Assembly: GCA_963785725.1 (NCBI GenBank)
Contig: CAWAWS010000039.1
Location: forward strand, 256,001-320,000
From: an uncultured delta proteobacterium
GTDB lineage: Bacteria > Myxococcota_A > Polyangia > Palsa-1104
Reading direction: 5' to 3'
DNA: 64,000 nucleotides
Below are positions 45,948 through 64,000 of this stretch, in pieces. A program made the translations under genes and the position numbers. Position 1 is the first letter of the stretch, and each line of letters starts with the position of its first letter. Below the pieces are notes generated by a model. The model ran no database searches. It was given only the letters and a program-made list of their open reading frames with translations, and was not told where the DNA came from.

Positions 45948-46049
45948 GAGGCCCACAGTGTAGCACGAGGATTCGCGATAGCCGCGCCCGCGCAGCGGCG
46001 ACGGCGGGAGGCGGCGGCGCACTGCGCGGCGGGGGCGCGGCAGCTCGCG

Positions 46050-46580
46050 CAGCGGCGGAATGCGCGGCGGCGGAATGCCCGCCAGGCCGCGCGGCGGCGG
46101 AATGCCCGCCAGGCCGCGCGGATTGCCCGAGAGCTCGCGCAGCGGCGGTTTGCGCCCTGACGAGTTGCGCGGCAGCAAGTCGAGCGGCGGCAGCAATAAG
46201 CCGCGCCAGGCCGTCCGGTCGCGCGCTGGGGGCGGCGATGAGTTGCGCGGCGGCAAGTCGAGCGGCGGCCGCGACGAGTCGTGTACCGACGAATTGCAGG
46301 GCAGCGAGTCGAGCGGCGGCCGGGATGAGTCGTGTGCTGACGAGCTGCGCAGCAGCGAGTCGAGCGGCGGCCGCAACGAGTCGTGTGCTGACGAGCTGCG
46401 CAGCAGCGAGTCGAGCGGCGGCAGCAACGAGTCGCGCCAGGCCGACGGGCTGCGTGCCGGAGGCGAGTCGCGCCGGCCGGACGAATTGGGTCGCGAAGGC
46501 AAGTCGAGTCGGGTGGACGAGTTGGGTCGCGAAGGCGAACTGCCTGGCAGCGGCGAACTGCCTGGCAGCGGCGAATTGTC
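46050..46580. repeat. Composite tandem repeats (51-bp units plus 21-27 bp units)
   Basis: 51-bp period at 46237, 46288, 46339, 46390; shorter duplications on both sides. Confidence 0.85.
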
Positions 46581-46930: not shown

Positions 46931-48481
46931 CTACTTCGCGTCGTCGGACTTCCCCTTACGCCGCTTACTCGACGCTTTTCCGCCCGTTTTCGTCGATCGA
47001 CCGCCATCAACAGGCGGCTCGCCTGTGCCGATGCCACCCGTGCTTTTCGCGCCTACGCCGCTCTCTGCGCTGCTCGCGCGGTTACCGCCGTCCGAGCTGA
47101 TGACCCCACGGCCGTCGTCACCCTCGACAGCGGTGCTATCTGCGGCGGCGTCACTCCCGCCTGCCGCTCGACCATTGTCGGGCGCTCCGACGGACACCCC
47201 TCGTTTGGCGCCGCCGTTCCCGACCGAGCCGCCACCGTGCTCGGCTGAGCCGCCGGCACGCTGCCCGACCGAGCCGCCACCGTTCCCGGCTGAGCCGCCG
47301 CCGCCGTTCCCGACGGAGCCGCCGCTGTTTCGGCCCGACCCGCTGCCGCCGTCTCCGCCGCGGCCGCGCGAATCCTGCTGCAGCCGAATGTCGAGCGCGC
47401 CCACGTTGTCGCCGACAAACGGCCGCATCGCGCCCAACGCACGCAGTCCCAGCCGTTGCACATCCACCGTGCGGTAGATGCGATCGTCGAAGGCACCCAC
47501 TGCGATCATCGCCAGCGGCAGCGAGAAGAAGAACATCGCCACCGCGACGAACGCCAACAGCTTGTGCCGACTCACGCCCGCCGACGCCACGCGCCCCTGA
47601 TCCGTCAGCTCGAAGCGCAGCCCCAGCTGTTTACGCTCGATCTGCGAGCGCATGTAGATTCGCGTACGCCGTTTTTGCGCGGCCTCGAGCTGCCGCTCCA
47701 GCTTCGGCATGCCTTGCTCGAGGTCGATCGCTTGCACGAGCAGCTGCGCTGTCTCCGCCGTCGACTTGGCGCTCGCGCGCAGGAACTGCTTGGCGACGAG
47801 CGCCGCTTGCGCCTTCTCGAGCACCGCTTTGGCGTCGGCCACTTCGTCGTCGGCGGCAATGAGCGCGCTGTCGGCTTCGTCCTGGCGCGAGGTCGCTTCC
47901 GCCTCGGTGACGAGCGCGCCCAAGTCGCGCACGACGTCGTAAACCTGGCGCGGATCGTGGCCTTGATAGCTGATGGCGACGCGCGCTTCACGGCCGTCGG
48001 GTCCGGCGGCGCCTTCGATGAAGTAATTGCGCCAGACCTCGATGTTCAGATCGTCGCGCATCTCTTCGACGGCGAGCGACGGATCGCGCTTGGTCAGGCC
48101 GGGATAGAGGCCACGCGCGCGGATGACCGAGAGTAGGCGCGACGTCGAAAAGCAGATGTCGGCGACATATTCGCGCAGGCGGCCGTTGGGCGACGGCCCC
48201 GTCGCCGGATCGACGTCCCCTTCGACGACACGAAAGGCGATGCGCGACTCGAACACTTGCTGTTTGCGCGCGCGATAGCCGACAACGGTCGCGGTCGCGA
48301 GCAGCGTCAAGGCGAGCGTCAGCCACGGCCGCGCGGCCGCGCGCAGGAGGAGTCGGCGCAGCTCGTCGAGAACGCCGCCGGACGCGCGCTCGTCGGCATC
48401 CCAGCCGTGCGGCGCGCTCGCGGCCAATGGTTTAACCACCGGCCGCGGCGGATGCGGCCGGTTCGCGCGCGGCTCAATCAT
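46931..48481 (-). CDS. Second Wzz/GumC-like co-polymerase with Gly-rich low-complexity tail
   Basis: TM, coiled coil, TM, FDDRIY..LG..LG; GGGSVGN repeats. Confidence 0.75.
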   Translation of the reverse strand: MIEPRANRPHPPRPVVKPLAASAPHGWDADERASGGVLDELRRLLLRAAARPWLTLALTLLATATVVGYRARKQQVFESRIAFRVVEGDVDPATGPSPNGRLREYVADICFSTSRLLSVIRARGLYPGLTKRDPSLAVEEMRDDLNIEVWRNYFIEGAAGPDGREARVAISYQGHDPRQVYDVVRDLGALVTEAEATSRQDEADSALIAADDEVADAKAVLEKAQAALVAKQFLRASAKSTAETAQLLVQAIDLEQGMPKLERQLEAAQKRRTRIYMRSQIERKQLGLRFELTDQGRVASAGVSRHKLLAFVAVAMFFFSLPLAMIAVGAFDDRIYRTVDVQRLGLRALGAMRPFVGDNVGALDIRLQQDSRGRGGDGGSGSGRNSGGSVGNGGGGSAGNGGGSVGQRAGGSAEHGGGSVGNGGAKRGVSVGAPDNGRAAGGSDAAADSTAVEGDDGRGVISSDGGNRASSAESGVGAKSTGGIGTGEPPVDGGRSTKTGGKASSKRRKGKSDDAK

Positions 48482-49282
48482 GTGGCCCCTCGTGGCGGCG
48501 GGCTCGCGCTGCGGCGCGGGAATCGCGGGGCAGGCTCGGCTGCAATGGTTTAACCATTGCCCGCCGCCAATCGCGCCCGCCAAATAGCCGATCGCGATTC
48601 TGGATCGAGCGCGCAAAGCGAGCATCGGCCGGGAGTCCGGCCGCGGGGAGGCTCAACTGGCTTAGCCAGTCGAGGCGCGCTTGCGCCCTGTCGATCGATG
48701 CTGAATCAGCGTCGATCCTGCGCTGGCGAAGGCAGTGCAGGATCGTGCGCGCTGATTTAGACGCGTGGTCCGACCCGCCCGCGCGCGCCGCGACTTCGGC
48801 GTGTCCGGCACGTGAGGCGCGCGCCTCACGTAAGGCTCGGTCCAACTGTGCCGCGCGCGCCTCACGCGGAACGCCCGCGGCCAAGGGTTTAACCATTGGC
48901 CGCAACGACGCCGAACGAGCCGTGCGTCGCGCACCCATCGCCGATCGAGCGCGTTTGGCGCGCGCCGGGCGGTGAGTGTCGGGCAGCCGCTGCATGCGCA
49001 ATGGTTCAACCATTACCCGCGGCGACTGCGCACCCGCAGTGCGCGGCGCAACCAATCGACGTTCGACGGTGCTGGGCGCTGCCGCGAGATCGATGTCGGG
49101 CAGGCGCTGCGGCAGGATTGGTTTAACCATTGTCCACAGCGACCGCGCACTGGCATTGGGCAGCGCAAGTTTCCGACGTTCGACGGCGATCGGCGCGTGC
49201 TGCGAAACCAATGTCTGCCGACCGGTTCGCACACAAGGGTTTAACCATCGCCTGCAGCGACGGCGCGCGAGCCCCTCGATGC

Positions 49283-51364
49283 TTAGCCATGTGGCCCTCC
49301 GCAGCGCGCGCGCCAGGCGTCGTACAGCCGGCCGCGCGCCGCTTCCCAGGCCGCCGGATCTTCAGGCCACGCCGCCGCGCCGGCGCCCTCGTCGAGCGCG
49401 CGCGGCACGAGCTCCCGCAGCAGTGCGGCCGCGACATCCGCCGCGCCGCACTGCTCGAGCGCGCGCAACAGCAAGCGGTCCTGCAGCCCGCGTCGCAGCG
49501 TCTTCAGGCGCAACGAAGGCCACGGCCCGTCGACCGCCGCCGCCTCGGCCGACGCGCGCACCGTCTGCGCTTGCGCTGCGTGCGCCGGCTCGGCGTCGTT
49601 CGACCGCACTTTGGACGGCGCGCCCGACCGGTCCGACGACGCGCTCGGATTGGTCACACCTATCGATGACTTCGGGTCCGTCGCAGCGGCCACCGACGAA
49701 GACGTGTCGCCCGGGGCTTGTGGGGACGCGCCCTGCGGCGGCGGATAGAAGAGCACGCCGTCGCCGTTGCCCCAGTCGGGATTGCGCAGGCGCTTGCGCC
49801 GCTGGTCATACGTGAGCGGATCGGTGAGCACGTCAGTCGGTCCGCCGCCATTATACCGGTCGGCGAAGTAAGTGCCTTCCCAGGCGTACCAAAGCTCGAC
49901 GCCATAACGCGCGGCGATCCAACCCCAAGTCCGCAGCGACGGGCCGGCGGCGTCGATGACCATACTGCCCGCGGCCGGCGGCGTGCCGTTGTAGGTCCAG
50001 CGATGCGGCGGTCGCGACGCCGGCCCGATGAAGACGTCGATCGCGTCGCCGAAATCGCGATTGGGCGGCGCCGTCACCGCGCGCAACAGCTTGTCGTGCC
50101 GTCCGATACGCTCGCCGGCGGCGCGTGCCGACGCGCGTTCAGCCGCCGAATGCGGCTCGTCGATCGGAATCGTAAACGCCGTCTGCGCCCGCGTCGCGAA
50201 TTGGTTTAACCATTGCTGGACGTCGTGCTGCGCGCTCGCCACCGTCGAGAGATCGATCTCGACCGGCCAATAGCGCGTCCCCCGCATGAGTGCTTGCCGC
50301 GCGACAAATCGGTCGAGCGGCAGATCGGACGCGAGGTAGGCGCCGTGCGCACGGGCCAACGCGTGGTAGCGCTCTTCGAGCGGCAGGAGCGCGCGATCGT
50401 CGTCGGGCAGGCCGTGCGCGCGCGCGATCTCGGCCGGCATGTACCAGATCCAGACGAGCGGCTCCTCGTCGACGGCGACCTGCACCGCCTCGACGGTAAG
50501 CTCGACGGGAAACGTGCGCGTGCCGACGATGAGCGTGCCGCGATGCAGGCCCGGCGCGGCGTCGGCGGCGATGGCGACGTCGAACAGCGCGTCCCCGGTC
50601 ACAGGCTGCGACGAAGGACGCAGCGGATCGGGGTAAACGCCGGCGCCGCGACTCGGCCCATACATGGTCGTCGACGGTTCGCGGAGGTTCAACCATTGCA
50701 CGGCGAACGCGTCGACGTGCACCGCCGCGACATCGACCGCGCGGCCGGTCGGCGATTGCATCGGCGATACGGACGCTCGCTGCGTCGGTGCCGCCGCCTT
50801 CATCAACGGCTGCTGCGTGGGCGGCGACGCCCGTGTCGACCACGGCGCCTCGGTCGTTGGTGCGGTTGACGCCGCGCGTGTCGACGTTCGCGGCGACGCC
50901 GGTTTCGCGAACGGCGCTTCGGTCCCGGGCGTGGTTGACGCTGCCCTCGGCAACGTTCGCGGCGTCGACGTGCCCGCGTTCTGCGCTGCGGATGACGGTC
51001 CGTTCGGGGGCCGCGCGGCTGGTTGCGATTGCGGCGCCTCGCTCGTCGAAGGGGTGGGCGGCGGCTCGGTCGCAAACGTCAGCGAGCTCGCGGCGTCGTG
51101 CGTGCGCGTCAGGACCTGCAGCGCCAGCGTCTCGCCGCGACCGCCGCGCAATCGCACGCGCGTCCCGTCGAACAGTGGCGACGTCGCGGGCAGCGGCTCG
51201 TCGCGACGTAATCGCGTGTCCTCGGTCACGATCGCCAGCTCGGCGCCGCCCGCGGCGCGCGCGTCGGCGGTGCGGCCGTCGTCGCGAGGTTGCGCCGTGC
51301 GCGCATCACGCCGGCCGCAGCCGCTCAGCGCGACGAACGCAGCGACGACGAGAATGCGCGTCAT
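49283..51364 (-). CDS. Lipoprotein with probable DUF4091/glycoside-hydrolase-like C-terminal domain and Pro/Ala/Thr-rich insert
   Basis: Lipobox LSGC; GNGDGVLFYP, SLRLKTLRRGLQD motifs. Confidence 0.7.
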   Translation of the reverse strand: MTRILVVAAFVALSGCGRRDARTAQPRDDGRTADARAAGGAELAIVTEDTRLRRDEPLPATSPLFDGTRVRLRGGRGETLALQVLTRTHDAASSLTFATEPPPTPSTSEAPQSQPAARPPNGPSSAAQNAGTSTPRTLPRAASTTPGTEAPFAKPASPRTSTRAASTAPTTEAPWSTRASPPTQQPLMKAAAPTQRASVSPMQSPTGRAVDVAAVHVDAFAVQWLNLREPSTTMYGPSRGAGVYPDPLRPSSQPVTGDALFDVAIAADAAPGLHRGTLIVGTRTFPVELTVEAVQVAVDEEPLVWIWYMPAEIARAHGLPDDDRALLPLEERYHALARAHGAYLASDLPLDRFVARQALMRGTRYWPVEIDLSTVASAQHDVQQWLNQFATRAQTAFTIPIDEPHSAAERASARAAGERIGRHDKLLRAVTAPPNRDFGDAIDVFIGPASRPPHRWTYNGTPPAAGSMVIDAAGPSLRTWGWIAARYGVELWYAWEGTYFADRYNGGGPTDVLTDPLTYDQRRKRLRNPDWGNGDGVLFYPPPQGASPQAPGDTSSSVAAATDPKSSIGVTNPSASSDRSGAPSKVRSNDAEPAHAAQAQTVRASAEAAAVDGPWPSLRLKTLRRGLQDRLLLRALEQCGAADVAAALLRELVPRALDEGAGAAAWPEDPAAWEAARGRLYDAWRARCGGPHG

Positions 51365-51399
51365 CGCGCGACAGCTCCAAGTGACCTAGACCGTGAGAC

Positions 51400-51605
51400 C
51401 GAGTCGCGAATCTGCGAGGCCGACAGTGATGTCGACCAGTCGCGCGTCTGCGAGGCCGACAGTGATGCCGACCAGTCGCGAATCTGCGAGGCCGATAGTG
51501 ATGCCGACGAGTCGCGACTTCGCGCGGCCCACATCGATGCGGGCGAGTCGCGATTTTGCGAGCCCAACATCGATGCCGATGAGTCGCGATCCTGCGGGGC
51601 CAATA
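51400..51605. repeat. About 6 degenerate 36-bp tandem repeats
   Basis: AGTCGCG at 51402, 51438, 51474, 51510, 51546, 51582. Confidence 0.85.
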
Positions 51606-51748
51606 GCAGCGTTGACGCCGACGTCGACACTGAATGCGCATGCGAGTGTGACTGCGATGCGGACGCCGATGCCCATGGCCATGTTCGCTCGCTCGAATCG
51701 TCATTCCGACGACGGCTACAGGACCGGACGCGCCAACTGTGGCTGCTG

Positions 51749-52921
51749 CTAGCGATACGCACGGACCGCGTCCTCGAGCACGGCGTGCAGCCGCGCCGCG
51801 CTCTCCGCCCAGCCGCCGCGCGCGCCAATCGCGGCCACCTCGCTCGCGTCGTAATCGATCGCGACCTGCCGCTCCAGCGCGGCCGCCAGCGACGGTGCGT
51901 TCATTGGTTCAACCATTTCGCCCAACGCCGGCGAGGTCATGACATCGGGAATGCCGCCGACGCGCGTCGCGACCGCGCGCCGACCGCAGGCGAACGCCTC
52001 GAGCAGCACATTCGGCGTCCCTTCGTTCCAGCTCGGCAGCACGAAGAGGTCGCACGCCGCCAGCCAGCGCGGCACTTCCGCGAGCGGCCGCGCGCCGACG
52101 AGCTGCGCCTGCGGGCCGATGCGCGCCGCCATCGCCGCGCACTCCGCCCGCGCCGCGCCGTCGCCGACGAGCACGAGCGAGAGGTCGGGATGACGCGGCG
52201 CCAGCGTGGCAAAGGCGTCGAGCAGCTCGATGAGCCCCTTATCGCGCACGAGCCGACCGACGTAGACGATGACACGACCTTCCGGCGGCAGACCCAACTC
52301 GACGCGCGCTTGCCGGCGATCGCGCGGCTGAAACAGCGTAGCGTCGACGCCGTTGGCCACGATGGCGATGCGATCGCGCGCTACGCCCAGCGTCGCCAGC
52401 GAATCGGCGAGCGGTCGCGAAACGGCGACGGCACGCGTCGCCCGCGGCAAGAGCGCGCGCAGCTGCCGCCGCACCGACGGCAGCTTGGCGACGATATTGA
52501 CGTCCGATCCGTGCACCTTCACCACCGACGGCAGCCGCAGCGCCTCCGCCAGCATCACCGTGGCCGCACCGTCGGGATAGGCCCACGCGCCGAGCAGCAC
52601 ATCAGCCCGCCGGCGCCGCCACGCCGCTCCCAACAGCGACGCCGCGTACAGCGCCGCCGACGCGCCCGGCAGCTTGGGCGCCATCAAGTAGCGCGGGTGC
52701 GAAATGGTTAAACCATTGACGCTCTCCGTCGCTGGCACGGCCGCCAAACGACCGGCCGCGCTCCACTTGCGGAACATCCCGGCGCCCGGAAACCAGGGAA
52801 TGACCCCCAGCACCTCGACGTCGCAGAGCTTGCCGAGCGCGGTGAACTGCTGCTGATTGAAGGGCGACCAGAGCGGCTCGACCGGATTGGGAAACAGCCG
52901 CGTGAGGACGACGACGCGCAT
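51749..52921 (-). CDS. Glycosyltransferase family 4
   Basis: VHGSDVN, NGVD, VGRLVRDKG, PSWNEGTPNVLLEA. Confidence 0.93.
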   Translation of the reverse strand: MRVVVLTRLFPNPVEPLWSPFNQQQFTALGKLCDVEVLGVIPWFPGAGMFRKWSAAGRLAAVPATESVNGLTISHPRYLMAPKLPGASAALYAASLLGAAWRRRRADVLLGAWAYPDGAATVMLAEALRLPSVVKVHGSDVNIVAKLPSVRRQLRALLPRATRAVAVSRPLADSLATLGVARDRIAIVANGVDATLFQPRDRRQARVELGLPPEGRVIVYVGRLVRDKGLIELLDAFATLAPRHPDLSLVLVGDGAARAECAAMAARIGPQAQLVGARPLAEVPRWLAACDLFVLPSWNEGTPNVLLEAFACGRRAVATRVGGIPDVMTSPALGEMVEPMNAPSLAAALERQVAIDYDASEVAAIGARGGWAESAARLHAVLEDAVRAYR

Positions 52922-52962
52922 TCGTCCATCGATCTTACACGACGGGGCATTACACTCTCGAC

Positions 52963-53613
52963 ATGCTCAGCCTCTATCTGGTTCGCCACGGCCAGACCGA
53001 CTATTCGGCGCACAATCGTTTTTGCGGCAGCGTAGATCCGCCGCTCAACGACGTCGGGCACGCCATGGCCGAGGCGCTCGGCAAGCGCTACGGCGCCGGC
53101 CCTACGCCGGGTGAGCGCTGGAACGCGATTTACGCCAGCCAAATGCTGCGCGCGCGTCAGACCGCCGAGCCGACGGCGCGCGGCGCAGGAATTGGTTTAA
53201 CCATTGACGATGGTCTGCGCGAGATCGCCTATGGTGAGTGGGAGGGCCGGCCCGAGGCTGATGTCCAGCGCGACGATCCCGGGCGTTTCGCGGCCTGGGC
53301 GGCGCATCCCGGTCGTATCGCGCCGCCGGGCGGCGAGAGCGGTTACGCCATCGCCGCGCGCGCCATCGCCGCCGTCGAGCGCATCCGCGCCGCGCACAAA
53401 GACGGCAAGGTTCTCGTCGTCTCGCACAAAGCGACGCTTCGCGTGCTCGTCTGCGCGCTGATGGGCGTCGACGTCGATCTCTTCCGCACGCGCATCGCGC
53501 AGAAGACGTGCGCCGTGTCGATCATCGACTTCAAGCCCACGGGTCCGCTGCTGCAGGTGCTCGGCGACACCAGCCATTTGCCGCCCGAGCTTCTCGCGGG
53601 CGACGGCACCTGA
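52963..53613 (+). CDS. Histidine phosphatase (phosphoglycerate mutase family)
   Basis: LVRHGQT, RARQTA, LREIAYGEWEG, VVSH. Confidence 0.93.
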   Translation: MLSLYLVRHGQTDYSAHNRFCGSVDPPLNDVGHAMAEALGKRYGAGPTPGERWNAIYASQMLRARQTAEPTARGAGIGLTIDDGLREIAYGEWEGRPEADVQRDDPGRFAAWAAHPGRIAPPGGESGYAIAARAIAAVERIRAAHKDGKVLVVSHKATLRVLVCALMGVDVDLFRTRIAQKTCAVSIIDFKPTGPLLQVLGDTSHLPPELLAGDGT

Positions 53614-53636
53614 ACGCCGCGCACGACAGCGCGCGA

Positions 53637-54973
53637 ATGGTTGAGCCAATCGCCAAGCCGCGCCTGACACTGATTCCGCTCGTCGCCGCCACCTACTTCA
53701 TGGTGTCGGGCGGCCCGTACGGGCTCGAGGAGATCGTGGCCGGCGCCGGTTATCGCGGCGCGATCATCATCCTGCTCGTGACCCCGCTCGTGTGGTCGTT
53801 GCCGACGACGCTGATGGTCGGCGAGCTGGCCGCCGCGCTGCCCGAGGAGGGTGGCTATTACGCGTGGGTCAAGCGCGCGCTCGGTCGCTTCTGGGGTTTT
53901 CAAGAGGCGTGGCTCTCGCTCGTCGCCAGCATCTTCGACATGGCGATCTACCCGACGCTGTTCACGCTCTATCTCGGCCACTTGTGGCCCGCGCTCGCGG
54001 TCGGCCACCGCCCGCTCGTCGCCGGCGCGCTCATGATCTTCGTCTGTGGCGCCTGGAACCTGCGCGACGTGCGCGCCATCGGCTGGAGCGCCGTGGCGTT
54101 GACGGTAGCGCTCTTGGCGCCGTTCGCCGTGCTCGCCGCCAGCGCTTGGCTCGCGCCGACGGCCGCTCTTGCTCCGTCGCTCGCGTCGACGGCGTCGGCA
54201 AGCGGTGCCGCTCCGCCGTCGCTGGCGTCGGCGGGATTGTGGAGCGGCGTCCTCGTCGCCATGTGGAACTACATGGGCTGGGACAACGCCTCCACCGTCG
54301 CCGGCGAAGTCCACCGCCCGCAGCGAACCTACCCGCTGGCGATGCTGCTCGCCGTCGCCTTGGTCGCGCTCACCTACGTCATCCCCGTCGCTGCCGTCGC
54401 CCACGTCGACCTCGATCCGCGCGATTGGTCGACGGGTGGCTGGGTCGACGTCGCCCGCACCATCGGTGGCCCCTGGCTCGGCCGCGCCATCGCCGTCGGC
54501 GGCGTCCTGTGCGGCATCGGCATGTTCAACGCGCTCATCCTTTCTTACTCGCGCGTTCCCGTCGCCCTCGCCGAAGACGGCTTCTTGCCGCGCCAGTTCG
54601 CGCAGCGTTTGCCGTCGGGCGCGCCCTGGCTCGCCGTCGTCACCTGCTGCGTCGCCTACACGGCCTGCCTGGAAATTGGCTTCGTGCGCCTCATCGAGCT
54701 CGACGTGCTCGTCTACGGCCTCAGCCTGCTGCTCGAGTTCGTGTCGCTGGTCGCGCTGCGCATTCGCGAGCCGAAATTGGTTAAACCATTTCGCGTCCCC
54801 GGTGGCGTCATCGGCGCAGCGCTGTTGGGCGTGCCGCCGATGGCGCTCATCGTCGTGGCGCTAGTCAGCGGTTGTCACGAGCAAGCGGGCCGCTTGCCGA
54901 CGCTGGCTCTCGGCGCCATCCTGGTAGGAGCGGGCCCGTTGGTGTATTGGATTGGCGTTCGAAGGAGAAGCTG

Positions 54974-54974
<1 letters not shown>
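53637..54974 (+). CDS. APC-family amino acid/polyamine permease
   Basis: VSGGPYGLEE, GGYYAWV, WNYMGWD; about 12 TM helices. Confidence 0.9.
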
Positions 54975-55248
<274 letters not shown>

Positions 55249-55249
<1 letters not shown>

Positions 55250-57114
55250 TGCGCGCGGCTGGTGACATCTTGCTCGTCTCGACGTACGAGCTTGGTCACC
55301 AGCCGCTGCACCTTGCGTCGCCGCTGGCGTTCCTCGAGCGCGATGGCTATCGGCCGCGCGCGGTCGATGTCTCCGTCGAGCCGCTCGACGACGAGGCGAT
55401 CCGGCGGGCGCGCTTCGTCGCCGTCGCCGTTCCGATGCACACGGCGCTGCGGTTGGGCGCGGAGGTGGGGGCGCGCGTCAAGGCGCTGAATCCGACGGCG
55501 CACCTCTGCTACTTCGGTCTCTACGCGCCGCTCAATCGTGAATATTTGCGGCAGCACGGCGCAGACTCGGTTCTCGGCGGCGAGTACGAAGCGGCGTTGG
55601 TCGCGGTCGTCCGCGCGGCGGAATTGGTTAAACCAATTGCCGTGCTCGTCGCAGCCGTTGCGGCCGCGTTGCCCGTAGCGCCGGAGCCGGCCCACGCGAG
55701 CGAAATCGGCGCCGCTGAATTGGTCAAACCAATTTCAGCATTGGTTGAACCAATTCCGGGACGAGCGGGCGCGGCTCCACCGATTGCAGCGAGCGAAATC
55801 GGTGCGGCAGAATTGGTTAAACCAATTGTCGCAATGGTTGAACCAATTCCAACGGCGCGTGTCAGCTCAGGTCCGCCGATTCCAGGGGGCGAAAGCGGCG
55901 CGGCAGAATTGGTTAAACCACTCGCCGGCGAACGAACGACGGCGGTCCGCTCGGCAGCTACAGGCACGGTCGGCGGGATTGAGCTGGGCGAGCCCTGTGC
56001 TGCCGGACGATCGGACGATGCGGGCTCGGCCGAGAAGGCCGCCGACCGTCCAGGCGAATTGGTTAAACCAATTTCGGAAATGGTTGAACCAATCGTGCTC
56101 GAGCGGTTGGACTTTCCCGTGCCGTCGCGAGCGCGGCTGCCGCTGCTGTCCCGATATGCGCGGCTCGAAGTCGACGGCGAGGCGCGGCTCGCGGGCTATG
56201 CCGAGGCGAGTCGCGGCTGCCTGCACCATTGTCGACATTGCCCGATTCCGCCCGTGTACGAAGGGCGCTTTTTCGTCGTTCCCATCGAGACGGTGGTCGC
56301 CGATGTCGCGCAGCAAGTGGCCGCCGGCGCTCGTCACGTCACGCTCGGCGACCCCGATTTCTTCAACGGGCCGGGCCACGCCATGGCGGTGGCGCGCGCG
56401 ATCCACGCCGCACATCCGTCGCTGACGTTCGATGTCACGATCAAGGTCGAGCACATCTTGCGGCGGCGGGCGCTGTTCGGTGAGCTGGCAACGCTCGGCT
56501 GTGCCTTCGTCGTTAGCGCCGTCGAGTCGACGTCAGACACGGTCTTGCGGCTGCTCGACAAGGGCCACACGCGCGCCGATCTCGACGAGGCGCTCGCCAT
56601 CCTCGACGCAGCCGGTCTGCCGCTGCGGCCGACGTGGTTGCCGTTCACGCCTTGGACGACGCTCGACGACTACCTCGACATGCTCGATTGGATCGAGTCG
56701 CACGCGATGATCGATCACGTCGATCTCGTGCAGCTGGCGGTGCGGCTGCTGATTCCGCCGGGCTCGAAGCTGCTGTCGCTGCCGGAGATGCAAGCGGTGC
56801 TCGGTCCGCTCGAGCCCGAGAAGCTGAGCTACGCCTGGACGCATCCCGATCCGCGCATGGATCGGCTGGCGCACGACGTCTTCAGCGCCGTGGCCGAGGG
56901 GGCGCATTTTGCCGACGTGCGCGCGCTGGCGCGAGCGGCGGCGGCGCTGCCGCAGCTGTCGACGACGGCGATCGTGCACAAGCGCGTTCGCGGCCGGCCG
57001 CCGCGCCTGAGCGAATCCTGGTTCTGTTGAGCGGAACCCACAGCGAGCCAGTTCGGCGCGCTAAAGACTTCAGCCGTTGACCCGCTCCCGGAATTGGTTA
57101 AACCAATTCCGTAG
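55249..57114 (+). CDS. CUAEP/CCAEP-tail radical SAM selenoprotein (UGA at 57028-57030 read as Sec)
   Basis: N-terminal STYELGHQP B12-binding-like domain, ASRGCLHHCRHC (CxxxCxxC), C-terminus WFC-TGA-AEP with downstream hairpin; next in-frame stop TAG at 57112-57114. Confidence 0.85.
57042..57062 (+). other. Putative bacterial SECIS hairpin
   Basis: AGCGAGCC-AGTTC-GGCGCGCT stem-loop starting 11 nt after the in-frame TGA. Confidence 0.6.
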
Positions 57115-57369
57115 TGCGCTTAGTGCCCGTCGCGTGGGCCACATCTGCCCGACTCATTTTCGATCATCTCTGCGCCCGCAGATACATCGGGGCATCTTCA
57201 TGCACGATCAGCGTGCGAAGGATCAGGCATCTTCATTCACGATCAGCGTGGGAAGGCTCATTCACGAGGGTCGCTGCGATGGATCACGGCGCAAGGTCTG
57301 ACGGTGCTCGGCAGTTGGTCGAACTGGTCGGCTCGAGCGTAGGAATGGTTTAACCAATCCGATAAATGG

Positions 57370-58641
57370 TTAAACCAATTTTGGGAGCAGCGGGGTTATG
57401 TCGAGCTCGAGGTGGCGATGGGCCTGACGCAGCGCCGCTTCGACCTCTGCAGGCGTCTCGCCGCGCGCGAAAATGAAGCCGAGGTAGCTCGCGCCCTCGG
57501 GCAGGGGCACGAGGACTTCGCCCGGCCGCGCAGAGATGGTCACGTCTTCGATGAGCGGCACTCGGCGCGCTTCGTCGACGCTGCGAACCTCGGCCAAGAT
57601 GCCGCCGGACGGAATCGGAATCATCATGACGCCCGCCGCGCCCTGTCGCTCGAGCGCGCCCAGATCGTGCCCGAGCGCGGCGCGAATGACGATCTCCTCC
57701 AGCGAAGTCGCGCCCAAACCGAACCGCAACGTGCGCGCGCACAGGCCGCCGATCGAGCGCGCCGCCACCTCGATGACGACGGGGCCAGCCGGCGACAGCC
57801 GCAGCTCGGCGTGAATCGGACCGTTGGTTAAACCAATCGCGACTGCCGCCTGCGCGGCCTCCGTCTCGATCGCGCGCTGCAACGATGGCGCGTGGCGCGA
57901 CGGCGTCACATAGATCGTCTCCTCGAAGAAGGGGCCGTCGAGCGGATCGGGTTTGTCGAACAGCGCCAGCGTTGTCAGCTCACCGTCGCGCAAGATCCCT
58001 TCCAGCGCCACCTCGGCGCCAGGCACGAAATCCTCGACGAGGATACGCTGCCCGTCCGGATCTTCGACCGCGCGCAAGGCCGGCGTCTGCAGCAGCGCGC
58101 GCAACCGCCGCCACGCGACGACGAGCTCGGCCGCCGAGTTGGCGCGCATGACGCCGCGGCTCCCCGAGCACAGCAGCGGCTTGATGACGACAGGCCAGCG
58201 ATTGGTTAAACCATTGGCGACCACGTCGGGCGAATCCTGCGCGTCGAAGACGGCGCTGGCCGGGTTGGCGACGCCCGCCCGCGACAACGCCGCGCGCATG
58301 AGCCGCTTGTTGCGCGCCGTGGCGGCCGCGCCGACGGAGTTGCCGCGCAGACCCAGTCGTGCCGCGGCGCGCGCCGCGATATCGGCTGTCGGCTCGTCGG
58401 TGGCGATGATGGCGTCGAATGGTTTAACCATTGCCTCGCGCACGATCGCGTCCGTCGTTTCCTCTTCGTGGCGGAACTCGAGCGGCAGCGATCCGCCGAA
58501 CGCAGCGCGAGGCCAAATCTCGGCCAGCTCGTGGCAACGATTGGTACCGAGCACCGCTTCGACCCCGACGCGGTCGGCGGCGCGCAGGAAATCGTCACCC
58601 CGGTAGGAAGTGGTCGACGACAGAACGAGGACTCGACCCAT
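57370..58641 (-). CDS. ATP-grasp domain protein (L-amino acid ligase-like)
   Basis: ARNKRLMR, VVIKP...GSRGV, VEDFVPGAE, HAELR, IEVAARSIGG. Confidence 0.9.
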   Translation of the reverse strand: MGRVLVLSSTTSYRGDDFLRAADRVGVEAVLGTNRCHELAEIWPRAAFGGSLPLEFRHEEETTDAIVREAMVKPFDAIIATDEPTADIAARAAARLGLRGNSVGAAATARNKRLMRAALSRAGVANPASAVFDAQDSPDVVANGLTNRWPVVIKPLLCSGSRGVMRANSAAELVVAWRRLRALLQTPALRAVEDPDGQRILVEDFVPGAEVALEGILRDGELTTLALFDKPDPLDGPFFEETIYVTPSRHAPSLQRAIETEAAQAAVAIGLTNGPIHAELRLSPAGPVVIEVAARSIGGLCARTLRFGLGATSLEEIVIRAALGHDLGALERQGAAGVMMIPIPSGGILAEVRSVDEARRVPLIEDVTISARPGEVLVPLPEGASYLGFIFARGETPAEVEAALRQAHRHLELDITPLLPKLV

Positions 58642-58674
58642 GGATTATCGCCAATAATGTGATAACAGATCCGC

Positions 58675-59415
58675 GTGCTGTCCATCGTCGTTGCCATTCT
58701 GTCGGGTGTCTTCGTCGGCGCGCTGTTCCGATTGACCCACCTCGTCCACTCGTTCGCCGGGACCATCCTGCCCGGCGTGCTGGCGACGATCGTGGCGGCG
58801 ATCTTCCTGTTCCGGCGCGTCAGTGCATTGGTCAATCCAGTCGTCGAGGAGGCGCAGCGGCATCTGAAGGGCGGCCGCGCCGAGCTGGCGCTGAAGTCGC
58901 TGCGCGACGCGCTGCGTTTCGGCCGCTGGCACCCGATGCTGGAGCCGCAATTGCGTACACAAATCGGCCTGTTGCTCTATCAGCAGGGCGATATGGACGC
59001 GGCCATCACCGAGCTCGAGCGCGGCGCGTCGCGGCCCTGGGAATCGCCGGCGTTTTTGGGCTGCGCGTACTACAAGAAGCGCGACGACGCGAAGATGACC
59101 GCGGCGTTCGAGAAGGCCGTCAAAGCGGGCGAAAAAGAGGGCCTGTGCTGGACGGTCTACGCTTGGTGTCTGGCGTCGCGGAGCAAGAAGGCGGAAGCGA
59201 CCGCGGTGTTGAAGCGCGCCATCGCGAAGCTGCCGGCGGACGAGCGGTTGCAGGGCAACTTGGAGCTCGTCGAGGCAGGCAAGAAGATGAAGGTCGTGCC
59301 CTACGGTGACCGCTGGGCGCATTTTGGGCTCGACGGCGCCAAGCCCGGCGTGCCGAAGGCGATGCGCGGCTTCGCGCAGCGCCCGGGTTTCCGTCAGCGC
59401 CCGACGCGACGGTAG
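58675..59415 (+). CDS. Membrane-anchored TPR-like protein
   Basis: Two N-terminal TM helices followed by helical repeats. Confidence 0.7.
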   Translation: MLSIVVAILSGVFVGALFRLTHLVHSFAGTILPGVLATIVAAIFLFRRVSALVNPVVEEAQRHLKGGRAELALKSLRDALRFGRWHPMLEPQLRTQIGLLLYQQGDMDAAITELERGASRPWESPAFLGCAYYKKRDDAKMTAAFEKAVKAGEKEGLCWTVYAWCLASRSKKAEATAVLKRAIAKLPADERLQGNLELVEAGKKMKVVPYGDRWAHFGLDGAKPGVPKAMRGFAQRPGFRQRPTRR

Positions 59416-59958
59416 CTCCGTTCGTTTCGTAGCCGCGCATTTCGTCGACGCCTCAGCCTTCGACGGGATGCCGAACGATGCCTGGCCGCTTACGCGTCGA
59501 CAGGGTTTGACCCGGCAAGCCTGCTTGCCGATTGGTTAAACCAATTTGCTGAGCGGCTGGCGGCGAGCGCCGTCCAGCAGCCAACCTGCCCTGAATTCGT
59601 ACGCCGGCCCAATCCGCGCATGGATAATGGTTAAACCAATTCTAGTTGGACTCGGCTGCATGCCGCGAGCCGCGCGCTCCACGTTTGAATAATTGGTTAA
59701 ACCAATATCGGTGGATTCGGGTGCGTGACCGGACCGCTGCGCGTGTTCGTACGAGTAAACTGGGTAACCATTCGACAGTGAAGCTGGACGTCGACCGGCT
59801 CCGCGTTCGCTACCGAATGGGCGATGAATCCTTGCGGCGACGCTGCCCGCGTACGCGTGGAGAATTGGTTTAACCATTCTCGCCGAGTCGAAGCCGTCTC
59901 GTTTATGCGCGGACGCGGAGAGTTGGTTTAGCCAATGGATGGCGACGTCGGCCGCTGC

Positions 59959-61977
59959 TTACGCCGTGCCGAGTGCGCTCCAGAGCGGCGCCGTCCGGCG
60001 TGTCACCAGGCCGAGCTCCTGCATCAGGGCGTAGACCTTGGCCAGCGAATCGAGTGTCACGCGGCGATAGGCGCGATTGTTCGTGAACGCCTCGGCGACG
60101 ACGGACGCGGGAATGTCGAACTCCCGGATCAGCGCTGGCGGCGGTCGTAGCATCAGCTCGGCCGTGATGCGGAGAATGACGGGGGCCGTTGCCGCCAGCG
60201 CCATCCGTTTTAACGGATGCAAGCGCGGCACATACTCGCGCAGGAAGCTGCGCGCGAAGCATAGGTGGCGCGCCTCCTCGGTGACGTGGATTTGCGAGAT
60301 CCTCCGCAATAACGGATGGAGGTTGGGCTGGCCTGAAAGCGCCAGGCGCTGCGCGTGATCGATGGGATCTTCGCCGCCAAGCACGAACACGAAGAACAGC
60401 TCGGGAAAGCGCGCGGCCAAGCCGGCGACGCGCGTGCCCAGCCAGGCGAGCCGCGGCGTGAGGCCGCTGATGTCGAAGCGGCTGCGGCGGACGAACTCGG
60501 AGAACATCATCGAGTGGTGCGATTCCTCGATGAGCTCGTGATAGGCGTAGCGATGCTCGGGTGACTGCTCGGAGCGCGAGAGGATGAACAGCAAGAGGCC
60601 GCGGCTGAGGACGTTTTCGAACTGCACGCCGACCTTCATGAACGTCGCGACGCGATAGAGGCCGATGCGCGCGCGTTCCGCCGGCGGCTTGGCGCGGTAC
60701 CACGCGGTACCACCGAGCGGATCGTCGGGGCCGAGCTCCCAGCGCGAGTCGTCGTCGCGGACGGCGAAGTCGGGCGCGTCCCAGTCGATGTCGCGGAAGG
60801 CTTCGTAGCGTTTGCTGACCGATTGTCGCGACAGGCGCATCAACAGGGCGTCGTAGGCCTCGCGCGGTGCGCGGTGCTCTTCGTCGGCGACCGTGGGATC
60901 GGCAACGGATGGAGTGGTGGCGGAGTCGCGGGCCGAATCTCGAGCGACGGCCGGGTGACGCTCGTTCGGCGCGGCGGCGACGGACGCATCGCGCGGACCC
61001 GCAGATGACGCGGCGGCGACGGACGCATCGCGCGGAGCCGCAGATGGCGCGGCGACGACCGACGCATCGCGCGGAGCCGCAGATGACGAGGCGGCGACGG
61101 ACGCATCGCGCGGAGCCGCAAATAACGTGGCATCGACCGACGTATCCCGCCGAGCCGGCGATGGCGTGGTGTCGACCGACGTATCTCGCCGAGCCGCAGA
61201 TGACGTGGCGTCGGCCGGCGTGTCTCGCCGAGCTGGAGATGTTGCTGTGGCGACGGACGTGTCCCGCCGAGCCGCAGGTGACGTGGCATCAACCGACGCA
61301 TCCCGCGGACCCGCAGACGACGCGGCGTTGACGGACGTATCCCGAGCCGCCGATGGCGCTGTGTGAACAGGCGCATCCCGGCGAGTTGCAGACGGCGTGG
61401 CGTGAACGGCCTTCCTATGGGTTGCGGCAGCGACGGACGTATCGTGAGGTGTCGCAGCTGGACCGGCGGCGAGGTGCATATCGCGAATGGCAGTGGCGGA
61501 CGGCGCGTCGACGCGCATATCGCGATGAGTTGCGGATAACGGCGCATCGACGTGCACATCGCGACGAGTCGCAGATTGCGCGGAGTCGAAGGACGCATCG
61601 CGAGTGGCCACGGAAGAGGGGGCGTCGAGATGTGTATCGCGAGTGGCCGCGGAAGAGGGGGCGTCGAGATGTGTATCGGGAGTGGCCGCGGAAGAGGGGG
61701 CGTCGAGATGTGTATCGCGAGTGGCCGCGGAAGAGGGGGCGTCGAGATGTGTATCGCGAGTGGCCGCGGAAGACGGGGCGTCGACGTCTGTATCGCGAGT
61801 GGCCGCGGAACCCGGAGCGCTGACGGCAGCCGCGGCCGCGGATTCGGCCTCGGTGGCGGCTGCCGTGCCGTCGCCGGCGCCAGCGCGCCCGGCCGTGCCC
61901 GGCGCGCCATCGGCGGGCAGGTCGCGCATCGCCGCGGAAGACTCGTCGTTGCCGGTACGATCGACGGGGAGCTTCAT
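59959..61977 (-). CDS. AurF-like di-iron oxygenase with long N-terminal 13-aa repeat extension
   Basis: HELIEESHHSMMF, GEDPID, IHVTEEARH; ATG overlaps TetR stop. Confidence 0.85.
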   Translation of the reverse strand: MKLPVDRTGNDESSAAMRDLPADGAPGTAGRAGAGDGTAAATEAESAAAAAVSAPGSAATRDTDVDAPSSAATRDTHLDAPSSAATRDTHLDAPSSAATPDTHLDAPSSAATRDTHLDAPSSVATRDASFDSAQSATRRDVHVDAPLSATHRDMRVDAPSATAIRDMHLAAGPAATPHDTSVAAATHRKAVHATPSATRRDAPVHTAPSAARDTSVNAASSAGPRDASVDATSPAARRDTSVATATSPARRDTPADATSSAARRDTSVDTTPSPARRDTSVDATLFAAPRDASVAASSSAAPRDASVVAAPSAAPRDASVAAASSAGPRDASVAAAPNERHPAVARDSARDSATTPSVADPTVADEEHRAPREAYDALLMRLSRQSVSKRYEAFRDIDWDAPDFAVRDDDSRWELGPDDPLGGTAWYRAKPPAERARIGLYRVATFMKVGVQFENVLSRGLLLFILSRSEQSPEHRYAYHELIEESHHSMMFSEFVRRSRFDISGLTPRLAWLGTRVAGLAARFPELFFVFVLGGEDPIDHAQRLALSGQPNLHPLLRRISQIHVTEEARHLCFARSFLREYVPRLHPLKRMALAATAPVILRITAELMLRPPPALIREFDIPASVVAEAFTNNRAYRRVTLDSLAKVYALMQELGLVTRRTAPLWSALGTA
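60970..61810. repeat. About 21 degenerate 39-bp tandem repeats (DTHLDAPSSAATR-like)
   Basis: Period 39 (e.g. 61623, 61662, 61701, 61740). Confidence 0.9.
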
Positions 61978-63105: not shown

Positions 63106-64000
63106 TTATGGGAGGTCGACGGGCTGGGCCAGCGCGTACTGCAGCGCCGCCGGAATGTCGTCGGGTGCGAGGCCGATCCAGAAGACGTGCCAGTCGGCGA
63201 AGCGCATCATGCCGTCGCACAGCTTGACGTACCAAGGTCCGATGGCGTTGGCTGCGCGCGCGCGCCAGAAAATGCGCGGATAGTCGCTCGCCAGCGCTTG
63301 CCACAAGTCGCGCCCGATGCCTTCGCCTTGCGCCTCGGCGTCGACCGCGAACTTCGACAAATACGCGCCCAGCGGAGTCTCGACGACGAGCGCGGCGCCG
63401 CGCCAGCCGTGATCGTCGGGATCCTGCGCGCGATCGGACGCGTCGATCGCATGCGCCGCCGCGGCGCGGCTCGCGGCGACGACGTCGTCGGCCGCGGCGC
63501 GTTGTTCGACCGGCGTGCTCGCCGCGCCCTGCGCGGCCGCAACGTCTGCCGCCGCGCGCCCGCTCGGCGTTGCCCGCTCAGTCGGCGCGCTCGCCGGCGC
63601 GCGCCCGACAGTCACGTCGGCCGCCGCGCGCCCGACGGCCGCGTCTGCCGCCGCGCGTGCGACGGGCGCGTCGGTCGCGTCGCCGCGCGGCACCATCGCC
63701 ACGTACGCCCGCGCGATCGGCCGCGCAAAGAAGTCGTCGACCGGCGGCCGCCCGAAGCTGCGCGTCAACAGCGCCCGCAGCCGCTCGCGATCGACATCGC
63801 CGAAGTCGCGCCGCTCGACAATCGCCCCCCGTCGCAGCAGCGTACCGGCGCCCTTGATCGTAAACAGCTCGCGAAACAAATTGAGCGGCGACGTGATGGC
63901 GATCGACAGCCGATGCGGCGTCCGCTCGACCAGCCGGCGCGACTCCTCGACGAGCGCCCGCTCCTTGCGCGACAGCTCCTTCGACTGCGCCAACGCCGTG
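63106..64000 (-). CDS. N-acetylglutamate synthase/kinase (DUF619 GNAT domain), C-terminal part, with Ala-rich insert
   Basis: ITSPLNLFRELFTIKGAGTL, YLSKFAV..AQGEGIGRDLW, IFWRAR..N.I..WY. Confidence 0.8.
   Translation of the reverse strand, partial: TALAQSKELSRKERALVEESRRLVERTPHRLSIAITSPLNLFRELFTIKGAGTLLRRGAIVERRDFGDVDRERLRALLTRSFGRPPVDDFFARPIARAYVAMVPRGDATDAPVARAAADAAVGRAAADVTVGRAPASAPTERATPSGRAAADVAAAQGAASTPVEQRAAADDVVAASRAAAAHAIDASDRAQDPDDHGWRGAALVVETPLGAYLSKFAVDAEAQGEGIGRDLWQALASDYPRIFWRARAANAIGPWYVKLCDGMMRFADWHVFWIGLAPDDIPAALQYALAQPVDLP

Follow-up and report, generated by a model that had tools for sequence, protein, structure and literature searches.

Operators of the FadR subfamily of GntR regulators (Escherichia coli FadR, PdhR and LldR; Rv0494) follow a pattern of the TGGT-N3-ACCA type, and it is a box similar to this, with the 15-mer AWTGGTTNAACCAWT as its consensus, that we describe here from a 64,000-nucleotide stretch of an uncultured delta proteobacterium (the window; G000:C39:256001-320000, where G000 is an 8.9-Mb draft genome, 88% complete). 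The predicted binder of the box, P0001, shares with the FadR subfamily its GntR and FCD domains, the FadR fold and a box on its own start, and distant homologues of P0001 show the ordinary one-operator state of that subfamily. What sets the present system apart is that about 150 near-perfect boxes lie in five blocks, with almost none outside, and that they are mostly off promoters and written into coding sequence. P0001 and its box belong to a known kind; for the saturated, sharply bounded blocks that turn over, one of them apparently gained anew, we met no precedent in the literature listings searched.

Sequence-specific and often intragenic palindromes confined to chromosome regions are known from MatP/matS, RacA/ram, SlmA/SBS, Noc/NBS and RefZ/RBM; two of these proteins, SlmA and RefZ, are TetR-family regulators that have taken on this role. 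Each such system spreads some 5-70 sites across hundreds of kb linked to ori or ter, whereas the boxes here come at one per 0.4-0.5 kb in blocks of 5-33 kb that lie off ori and dif and include one that was probably lineage-gained. ParB/parS is alike in having clustered palindromes bound by a dimer (here a predicted one), but the motif is another, and canonical parS and a single ParB occur elsewhere in G000.

Among regulators, Rok of Bacillus subtilis offers an analogy for coating and bridging: the available part of PMC11841835 describes a repressor bound in eight genomic clusters that contact each other, and that of PMC13404874 serves the same comparison. Rok resembles our system in its few dense clusters of binding motifs (here five blocks with 136 of 137 exact copies), but it is H-NS-like and reads AT-rich foreign DNA, whereas here a likely ligand-controlled GntR/FCD protein, a strict 15-bp palindrome and native genes of 68% GC are concerned, and contacts between blocks are predicted. 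GalR of E. coli, a repressor of metabolic genes, links operators that lie far apart into mega-loops, its sites being, as far as the available part of the source goes, few, scattered, mostly upstream of genes and without saturated blocks (PMC5110547). Rv0494 likewise differs, with 77 binding places spread round the chromosome and few expression changes (PMC4301838, available part). The literature listings that we searched, in which few subscription papers and not the original Rok study are represented, contained no report of blocks of GntR sites. The reading that we favour, at slightly less than an even chance and by analogy with these systems, is that the blocks are P0001-coated domains, bridged within and between into loops rather than read as promoters.

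The array in the window

The window holds 26 exact copies of TGGTTNAACCA (span 48428-59876; 0.00 expected), the count given in an earlier sequence-only reading of this DNA, and none of 100 shuffles of the window yielded any copy, let alone 26. At up to one mismatch there are 33 copies, 32 within 48428-59934 and one at 41516; the near-exact copies that the earlier reading had put at about eight do exist, but six lie inside the array. An exact search agrees that the first 48 kb and the last 4 kb are without a full copy, and the 23-bp palindrome described at 57089-57111 is present. The consensus of the box is the 15-mer, beyond which flanks are unconserved genome-wide, and by this measure the array is:

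48426..59936, no strand: block E, 31 copies of AWTGGTTNAACCAWT at no more than two mismatches, 23 of them perfect, over 11.5 kb with sharp edges

For more than 20 kb on each side of block E, 2.5-kb bins contain no box at up to three mismatches. Six or seven genes of the window contain boxes (about seven had been claimed), which occur on either strand and in three frames, and the window boxes include four exact 21-bp pairs (55719/55740, 55812/55833, 56058/56079 and 57344/57365). A sigma-70 scan of 47-61 kb of the window gave no promoter-like sites and is uninformative here.

Contigs from four soil runs of two studies map onto the window, two of the runs spanning all 30 bins, and a metagenome contig of 99% identity carries four block-A boxes in the same context, which makes an assembly artefact unlikely. 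Strain variants among the soil contigs differ in repeat number at box-bearing repeats, a comparison that concerns contig coverage and repeat number rather than single box letters.

Five blocks genome-wide

Counted across the genome, the motif is not evenly abundant: 136 of the 137 exact TGGTTNAACCA copies in G000 sit in five blocks of 5-33 kb.

C7:357-389 kb: block A, 55 exact copies
C7:421-435 kb: block B, 23 exact copies
C33:40.5-52.8 kb: block C, 22 exact copies
C33:59-64 kb: block D, 10 exact copies
C39, the window: block E, 26 exact copies

At up to one mismatch to the 15-mer, 150 copies lie in the 76.5 kb of blocks against one in the remaining 8.82 Mb, and at up to two mismatches the genome has about 170 boxes. 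Block E is at least 344 kb away from every other block. Neighbouring boxes stand exactly 21 bp apart in 38 cases, and since these 38 pairs have 34 different spacers, they were not copied from each other. The sole perfect 15-mer outside the blocks (C20:273117) lies between two tandem genes; it could be a genuine isolated operator or else a seed.

Blocks like these are formed in G000 by no other palindrome or 10-mer. A second clustered palindrome, CGCAG-N8-CTGCG, was rejected as a cysteine-rich protein repeat, and a regular spacing of box groups was dropped, being significant in only one of five blocks (B, p 0.03). Neither does the box behave as a mobile or REP-like repeat, with its flanks unconserved outside 15 bp, in-place substitutions and differing pair spacers. 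An RNA explanation found no Rfam match in six loci of blocks A-D (a scan outside the window) and no tRNA occurs in the blocks, while a phage origin has a single tandem match among viral contigs to its name. Scanning metagenomes for the tandem box pair returned at least 127 stretches; among the matches listed (128 mapped loci, namely 127 and the viral one, several overlapping), 30 match blocks A or B and none matches blocks C, D or E, and two low-GC loci that we inspected are unrelated tandem repeats. Three metagenome contigs (L124, L095 and L136) carry either 8-9 boxes in less than 1.3 kb or three boxes at 20-bp spacing where G000 has no block; the spacings in L124 are 17 and 20 bp, and it has no match in G000.

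A candidate binding protein

The sequence-only reading had likened the motif to FadR-subfamily GntR operators and had stated that no cognate protein is encoded in the window. Both points stand as far as the window goes, and the predicted binder is encoded on another contig, inside block A, the largest. P0001 (C7:367773-368570), one of four GntR genes in G000, contains PF00392 (GntR; E 1.5e-21) and PF07729 (FCD; E 8e-6), and its model has a FadR fold (TM 0.65-0.69) with a chimera carrying the Rv0494 DNA-binding domain (top PDB match) and E. coli FadR as best matches. A 21-bp box pair (C7:368559/368580) lies over its start, the first residues, MVKP, being encoded by a box, and such a pair covers the regulator start codon in G000-G004, G010 and G012. 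At all eight distant homologue loci, a perfect box or two can be seen on the start of the gene or at most 175 bp upstream, with no further boxes and no blocks in the 4.7-20 kb of each locus, and five of the genomes concerned hold just 2-7 box copies each in total. PMC4301838 lists Rv0494 ChIP motifs that include GGtTGAgCC, and the sequence it gives at the start of Rv0494 itself holds a one-mismatch copy of the 15-mer. Judging from these sequences, the 15-bp palindrome is very likely the operator of the FadR-type GntR protein P0001, and there is in our view little doubt that P0001 would be the protein binding the box.

P0001 orthologues (50-74% identity) were found in seven of 30 relatives; boxes (8-40 copies) were also found in seven, six of which carry the gene. 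Across 301 genomes of the class, 15 have P0001 homologues, and at least 11 copies of WTGGTTNAACCAW occur only in G000, G001, G003, G004 and G012, with five in G010 and seven in G053, the latter spread over seven contigs. The fold and the neighbouring genes suggest acyl-CoA as the ligand, and an acyl-CoA response of Rv0494 is stated in the available part of a preprint (bioRxiv 10.1101/2025.09.25.678588); the near-invariant columns of the P0001 alignment include no conserved His. A four-copy model of P0001 scored 0.63 (best control 0.00; pLDDT at least 74; runs sharing at least 25% of contacts). It thereby passed the mark, which 20 out of 30 solved pairs and 1 out of 23 single chains also attained, and supports self-association without distinguishing dimer from tetramer. 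Because a FadR-like dimer alone explains this pass, we did not use it as evidence for bridging.

The pair over the P0001 start codon is autoregulatory in appearance, and with about 170 boxes at up to two mismatches one could picture a sink or antenna that stores the repressor or funnels it to a few true operators, setting an induction threshold, much as Rv0494, a relative, has 77 binding places but few changes in expression to go with them (PMC4301838, in the part available). A sink has no need of clustering, yet just one perfect 15-mer lies outside the blocks, and block E, at least 344 kb from the others, has no box at a divergent promoter, which leaves this explanation improbable.

Origin of block E and turnover of sites

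Blocks A, B and C/D occur at orthologous loci in congeners, G007, G010 and G012, and in G002 the 20-kb flanks of its blocks are box-free. The sequence-only reading had left open whether its cluster is conserved in relatives, and block E is not: its genes are syntenic there and box-free even at one mismatch in G001, G002, G003, G004, G010, G011 and G012. Since the matching regions of seven relatives lack boxes, block E is likely new, a fresh gain in the G000 line being the simplest reading of the alignments. Its features are:

48426..49249, no strand: six boxes within duplicated segments, most of them at intervals of 117-118 bp, with a Wzc-like gene on one side and the 693-aa gene on the other
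49286..51364, minus strand: 693-aa protein, with a box at 50200 (WLNQ) and a weak box at 50683
51752..52921, minus strand: GT4 glycosyltransferase, with boxes at 51903 and 52703
52963..53613, plus strand: histidine phosphatase, with a box at 53191 made by in-place substitution
53637..54974, plus strand: amino-acid permease, with a one-mismatch box across its start codon (53636) and a box at 54776
54983..55249, plus strand: Fe(II)-trafficking protein of the YggX family, without a box
55246..57114, plus strand: CUAEP-tail radical SAM selenoprotein (NF040546, 643 bits against a cut-off of 500)
57344..57379, no strand: 21-bp box pair where the radical SAM and ATP-grasp genes converge at their 3' ends, running into the stop codon of the latter
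57370..58641, minus strand: ATP-grasp ligase, with boxes at 57823, 58201 and 58418 that arose by substitution
58675..59415, plus strand: TPR protein, with only a three-mismatch copy, at 58827
59531..59936, no strand: five boxes in the 549 bp that separate the TPR gene from the convergent AurF-like gene, forming the right edge of the block

The earlier claim that selection acts on the DNA rather than the protein is strengthened by these genes, in which boxes change enzyme residues relative to orthologues. The phosphatase box encodes IGLTI where orthologues read LEVTV, LPLTT, LPVVT and VPVQV; the permease box at 54776 encodes KLVKPF (orthologues ALPRPF, SLPRPF and ALVRPF), and an ATP-grasp box EAMVKPF (orthologues EAQRAPF, EAATRPF and EAARAPF). 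In the radical SAM selenoprotein, eight boxes lie in an in-frame insert (55623-56093) that is absent from orthologues, and the box at 57093, within the 23-bp palindrome, sits in the selenocysteine (Sec) read-through tail after UGA and is not intergenic. At the left edge, the first of the six boxes may lie inside the N-terminus of the Wzc-like protein, the start of that gene being uncertain, and a related strain joins 48438 directly to 49287. From such comparisons, block E boxes appear to have arisen by residue-changing in-place substitutions together with in-frame and tandem duplications. Seeding of the block by a gene moved from another block is unsupported: a search of four congeners gave no orthologue of either the 693-aa or the GT4 gene, and the orthologues in G005 or G007 are without boxes. 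The 693-aa protein itself matches no Pfam or NCBIfam family. As to the selenoprotein, reading UGA as Sec gives WFCUAEP, the gene faces the ATP-grasp gene (57370-58641, minus strand), and despite a box-rich insert of about 100-170 residues the protein still exceeds the NF040546 cut-off.

At the retained loci of blocks A-D, individual boxes turn over. Among 48 in-gene box positions with at least two aligned relatives, five are common to all and 27 are private, some in-gene boxes being retained across the genus or family, and perfect 15-mers number 113 in G000 against 10-27 in congeners. Seventeen of 168 non-site orthologous 15-mers stand at 3-5 mismatches (background 0.06%), which favours stepwise gain and loss. 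The pair spacing is 21 bp in G000 and six genomes, 18-19 bp in two outgroups and 20 bp in 18 of the 21 close pairs of G012, a lineage specificity that would be expected if it were set by dimer-dimer contact. In G012 (L077 on C462; L063 and L078 on C438 and C489), we also observed two box pairs at a locus that is box-free in G000, and its block B extends past uvrD through genes that are box-free in G000 and G002.

Base composition and duplication

With boxes masked, GC at four-fold sites is 0.88 in block-E genes against 0.96-0.99 in their box-free orthologues, and 0.945 against 0.94-0.98 in control genes (five non-independent comparisons, p 0.0001-0.002). Per 10 kb, motif-free tandem repeats number 5.4 inside blocks, 6.7 up to 5 kb away from them and 4.3 at 5-10 kb, compared with 2.4 elsewhere, and coding density is 0.49-0.73 in blocks vs. 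0.85. Block GC is 64-72%, the genes being native and syntenic, and those of block E are intact at 76% identity to orthologues. Motif-free tandem duplications also flank block E at window positions 46040-46540, 51390-51600, 60690-61810 and 63570-63680. Such a domain-wide footprint is consistent with real occupancy and does not choose among looping, silencing and fork stalling.

Fork stalling could make the blocks a self-propagating drive, in which bound protein slows forks or repair locally, duplications and conversions produce more boxes, and blocks are tolerated without benefit. The motif-free repeats, whose density is two to three times higher inside blocks and up to 10 kb around them, would suit it, as would the drop of silent GC in the lineage that carries the block, the many boxes in duplicated segments, the excess of perfect 15-mers in G000 (113 vs. 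10-27) and the ability of repressor-operator complexes to block forks (PMC1636447, available part). However, boxes in conserved enzymes were made in place, without indels or shared flanks, pair spacers are nearly all different, intermediates exist, and some in-gene boxes have been retained across the genus or family; we consider such a drive quite unlikely.

Placement relative to genes

Gene calls came from our own hexamer model, which misses some genes, and intergenic box counts are inflated for that reason. Of 175 boxes in G000, 58 lie in gene bodies and 43 between convergent 3' ends, a placement unlike that of ordinary operators, as had been claimed; intergenic density per kb is 6.4 in convergent, 4.6 in divergent and 4.3 in tandem gaps. 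Block E has boxes at both of its convergent junctions and at neither of its two divergent ones, the divergent promoter gap of the TPR gene included. Boxes do not lie mainly at promoters of functionally linked genes, with a partial exception in congeners, in their block A. The block genes share no pathway; among them are tatA, YggX and genes for a pseudouridine synthase and a kinase.

These data bear on domain-wide repression, whereby P0001 would coat a block and hold all its genes down by promoter occlusion and roadblocks until released by acyl-CoA, the regulon being defined by position. Its starting point would be the autoregulated operator seen at all eight distant homologue loci; acyl-CoA and fatty-acid genes occur in blocks A-C, the blocks end at groES, lolC/E-like, uvrD and folA/thyA genes, three relatives have 12 of their 20 divergent junctions occupied by boxes, and lower silent GC could reflect weak expression. 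Against it count the 43 boxes between convergent ends and the box-free divergent gaps of block E, the lack of a shared pathway, and the intactness of block E genes at 76% identity. We judge this explanation unlikely.

Relation to ori, ter and centromeres

The genome has one ParB (parAB on C6, 332 kb) and three canonical parS sites at C19:123687-123792, 9 kb from dnaA (C19:114 kb); a lone parS lies at C16:16102. A dif-like site on C26 (217 kb) is conserved in four of five relatives. The blocks, on C7, C33 and C39, are on neither the dnaA nor the dif-like contig, and in G002, on one contig, parS (0.66 Mb) is about 1 Mb from block A (1.62-1.65 Mb) and C/D (1.71-1.72 Mb). GC skew was too weak to order the G000 contigs against ori and ter, and mapping against these landmarks places the blocks off the contigs of dnaA and the dif-like site, without the regional confinement of MatP/matS or RacA/ram. 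On C33, at 419.6 and 425.3 kb, two identical weak DnaA-family matches 5.7 kb apart are presumably IstB-like helper genes of a duplicated insertion sequence.

The sequence-only reading had rightly set the motif apart from canonical parS and had raised the absence of canonical parS as something to check; parS is in fact present. Its proposal of a single centromere-like locus fails on the five blocks, the single ParB, the parS sites beside dnaA on another contig and the absence of block E from seven relatives, while its broader idea of a chromosome-organising role remains the leading one. An array of ram-, matS- or parS-like sites tying the chromosome to the pole, the divisome or a partition ATPase is highly improbable. 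Ram and matS sites are dense, intragenic and palindromic like the boxes, blocks A-D are retained at orthologous loci, and myxobacteria have developmental stages; set against this are the parS-ParB system already present, the position of the blocks, the lineage specificity of block E and a predicted binder whose model looks like a plain FadR fold.

Proposed mechanism

Our favoured reading of coated, bridged domains would work as follows. P0001 dimers would bind the box, and two dimers would touch when boxes are 21 bp apart (the more strongly grounded steps). Since the distribution is all-or-none (150 in blocks, one outside), a box would pay off only near other boxes, a lone one not being kept. 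Beside an occupied domain, boxes would be gained stepwise, by substitution where the protein tolerates it and by tandem duplication where the DNA is free, and the same stepwise gain could seed a new block. The start-codon pair would let P0001 repress itself, so that its amount would match what the boxes absorb. Coated blocks would then compact and contact one another as loop anchors, probably released by acyl- or aryl-CoA, which is the least certain step. Taking P0001 as the binder, we see an architectural role as evenly poised; it is rather doubtful that a metabolic repressor has turned into a sequence-encoded chromosome architect whose domains spread and self-seed in 1D and perhaps in 3D.

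Several observations weigh against this reading. In G001, G003 and G004, boxes of blocks A and B lie at 12 of 20 divergent vs. 4 of 20 convergent junctions, an operator-like pattern with per-base densities alike, and a genuine regulon is plausible in block A (tryptophan dioxygenase, kynureninase and acyl-CoA enzymes), whose tryptophan-to-aryl-CoA cluster may be the original one. In G011 the gene is present, truncated by the start of a contig, yet there are no exact boxes, and in G007, which has boxes, the gene was not found in a genome 51% complete. Neither domain search nor model revealed an extra bridging domain in P0001, half-formed partners at 21 bp show no surplus, box spacing in four of five blocks is no more regular than random, and the limits of the blocks were set from the box positions themselves. 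Silencing or fork stalling would account equally well for the lowered silent GC and the additional duplications.

The comparison appears to catch a step from a one-operator regulator (eight outgroups) to saturated domains (one Polyangia family), one of them lineage-gained, and so addresses the open question of how transcription factors become nucleoid-organising proteins. It offers a defined protein, a strict box, a pair spacing fixed by lineage (21, 20 or 18-19 bp) and predicted contact points, in a setting where binding sites locally override protein sequence and where protein occupancy may be tied to a local shift in base composition and duplication rate. If domains are indeed self-seeding, an entire domain of 11.5 kb and 31 boxes was inscribed, inside a single genus, in functioning genes that are unrelated, and bacteria would have a domain type able to nucleate anew, linking nucleoid folding to acyl-CoA status and leaving a mutational footprint.

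Further observations on the blocks

Block A lies near B (32 kb) in G000 and near C/D (about 58 kb) in G002, and as its neighbours differ, rearrangements may have kept or brought blocks together. The box-free gap between C and D (C33:52.9-59.0 kb) contains folA, thyA and a large FHA-domain gene. In block A, a 293-aa protein (L006:476-1354, plus strand) without NCBIfam or Pfam matches is retained in all close relatives examined, and by eye its N-terminus is HicB-like.

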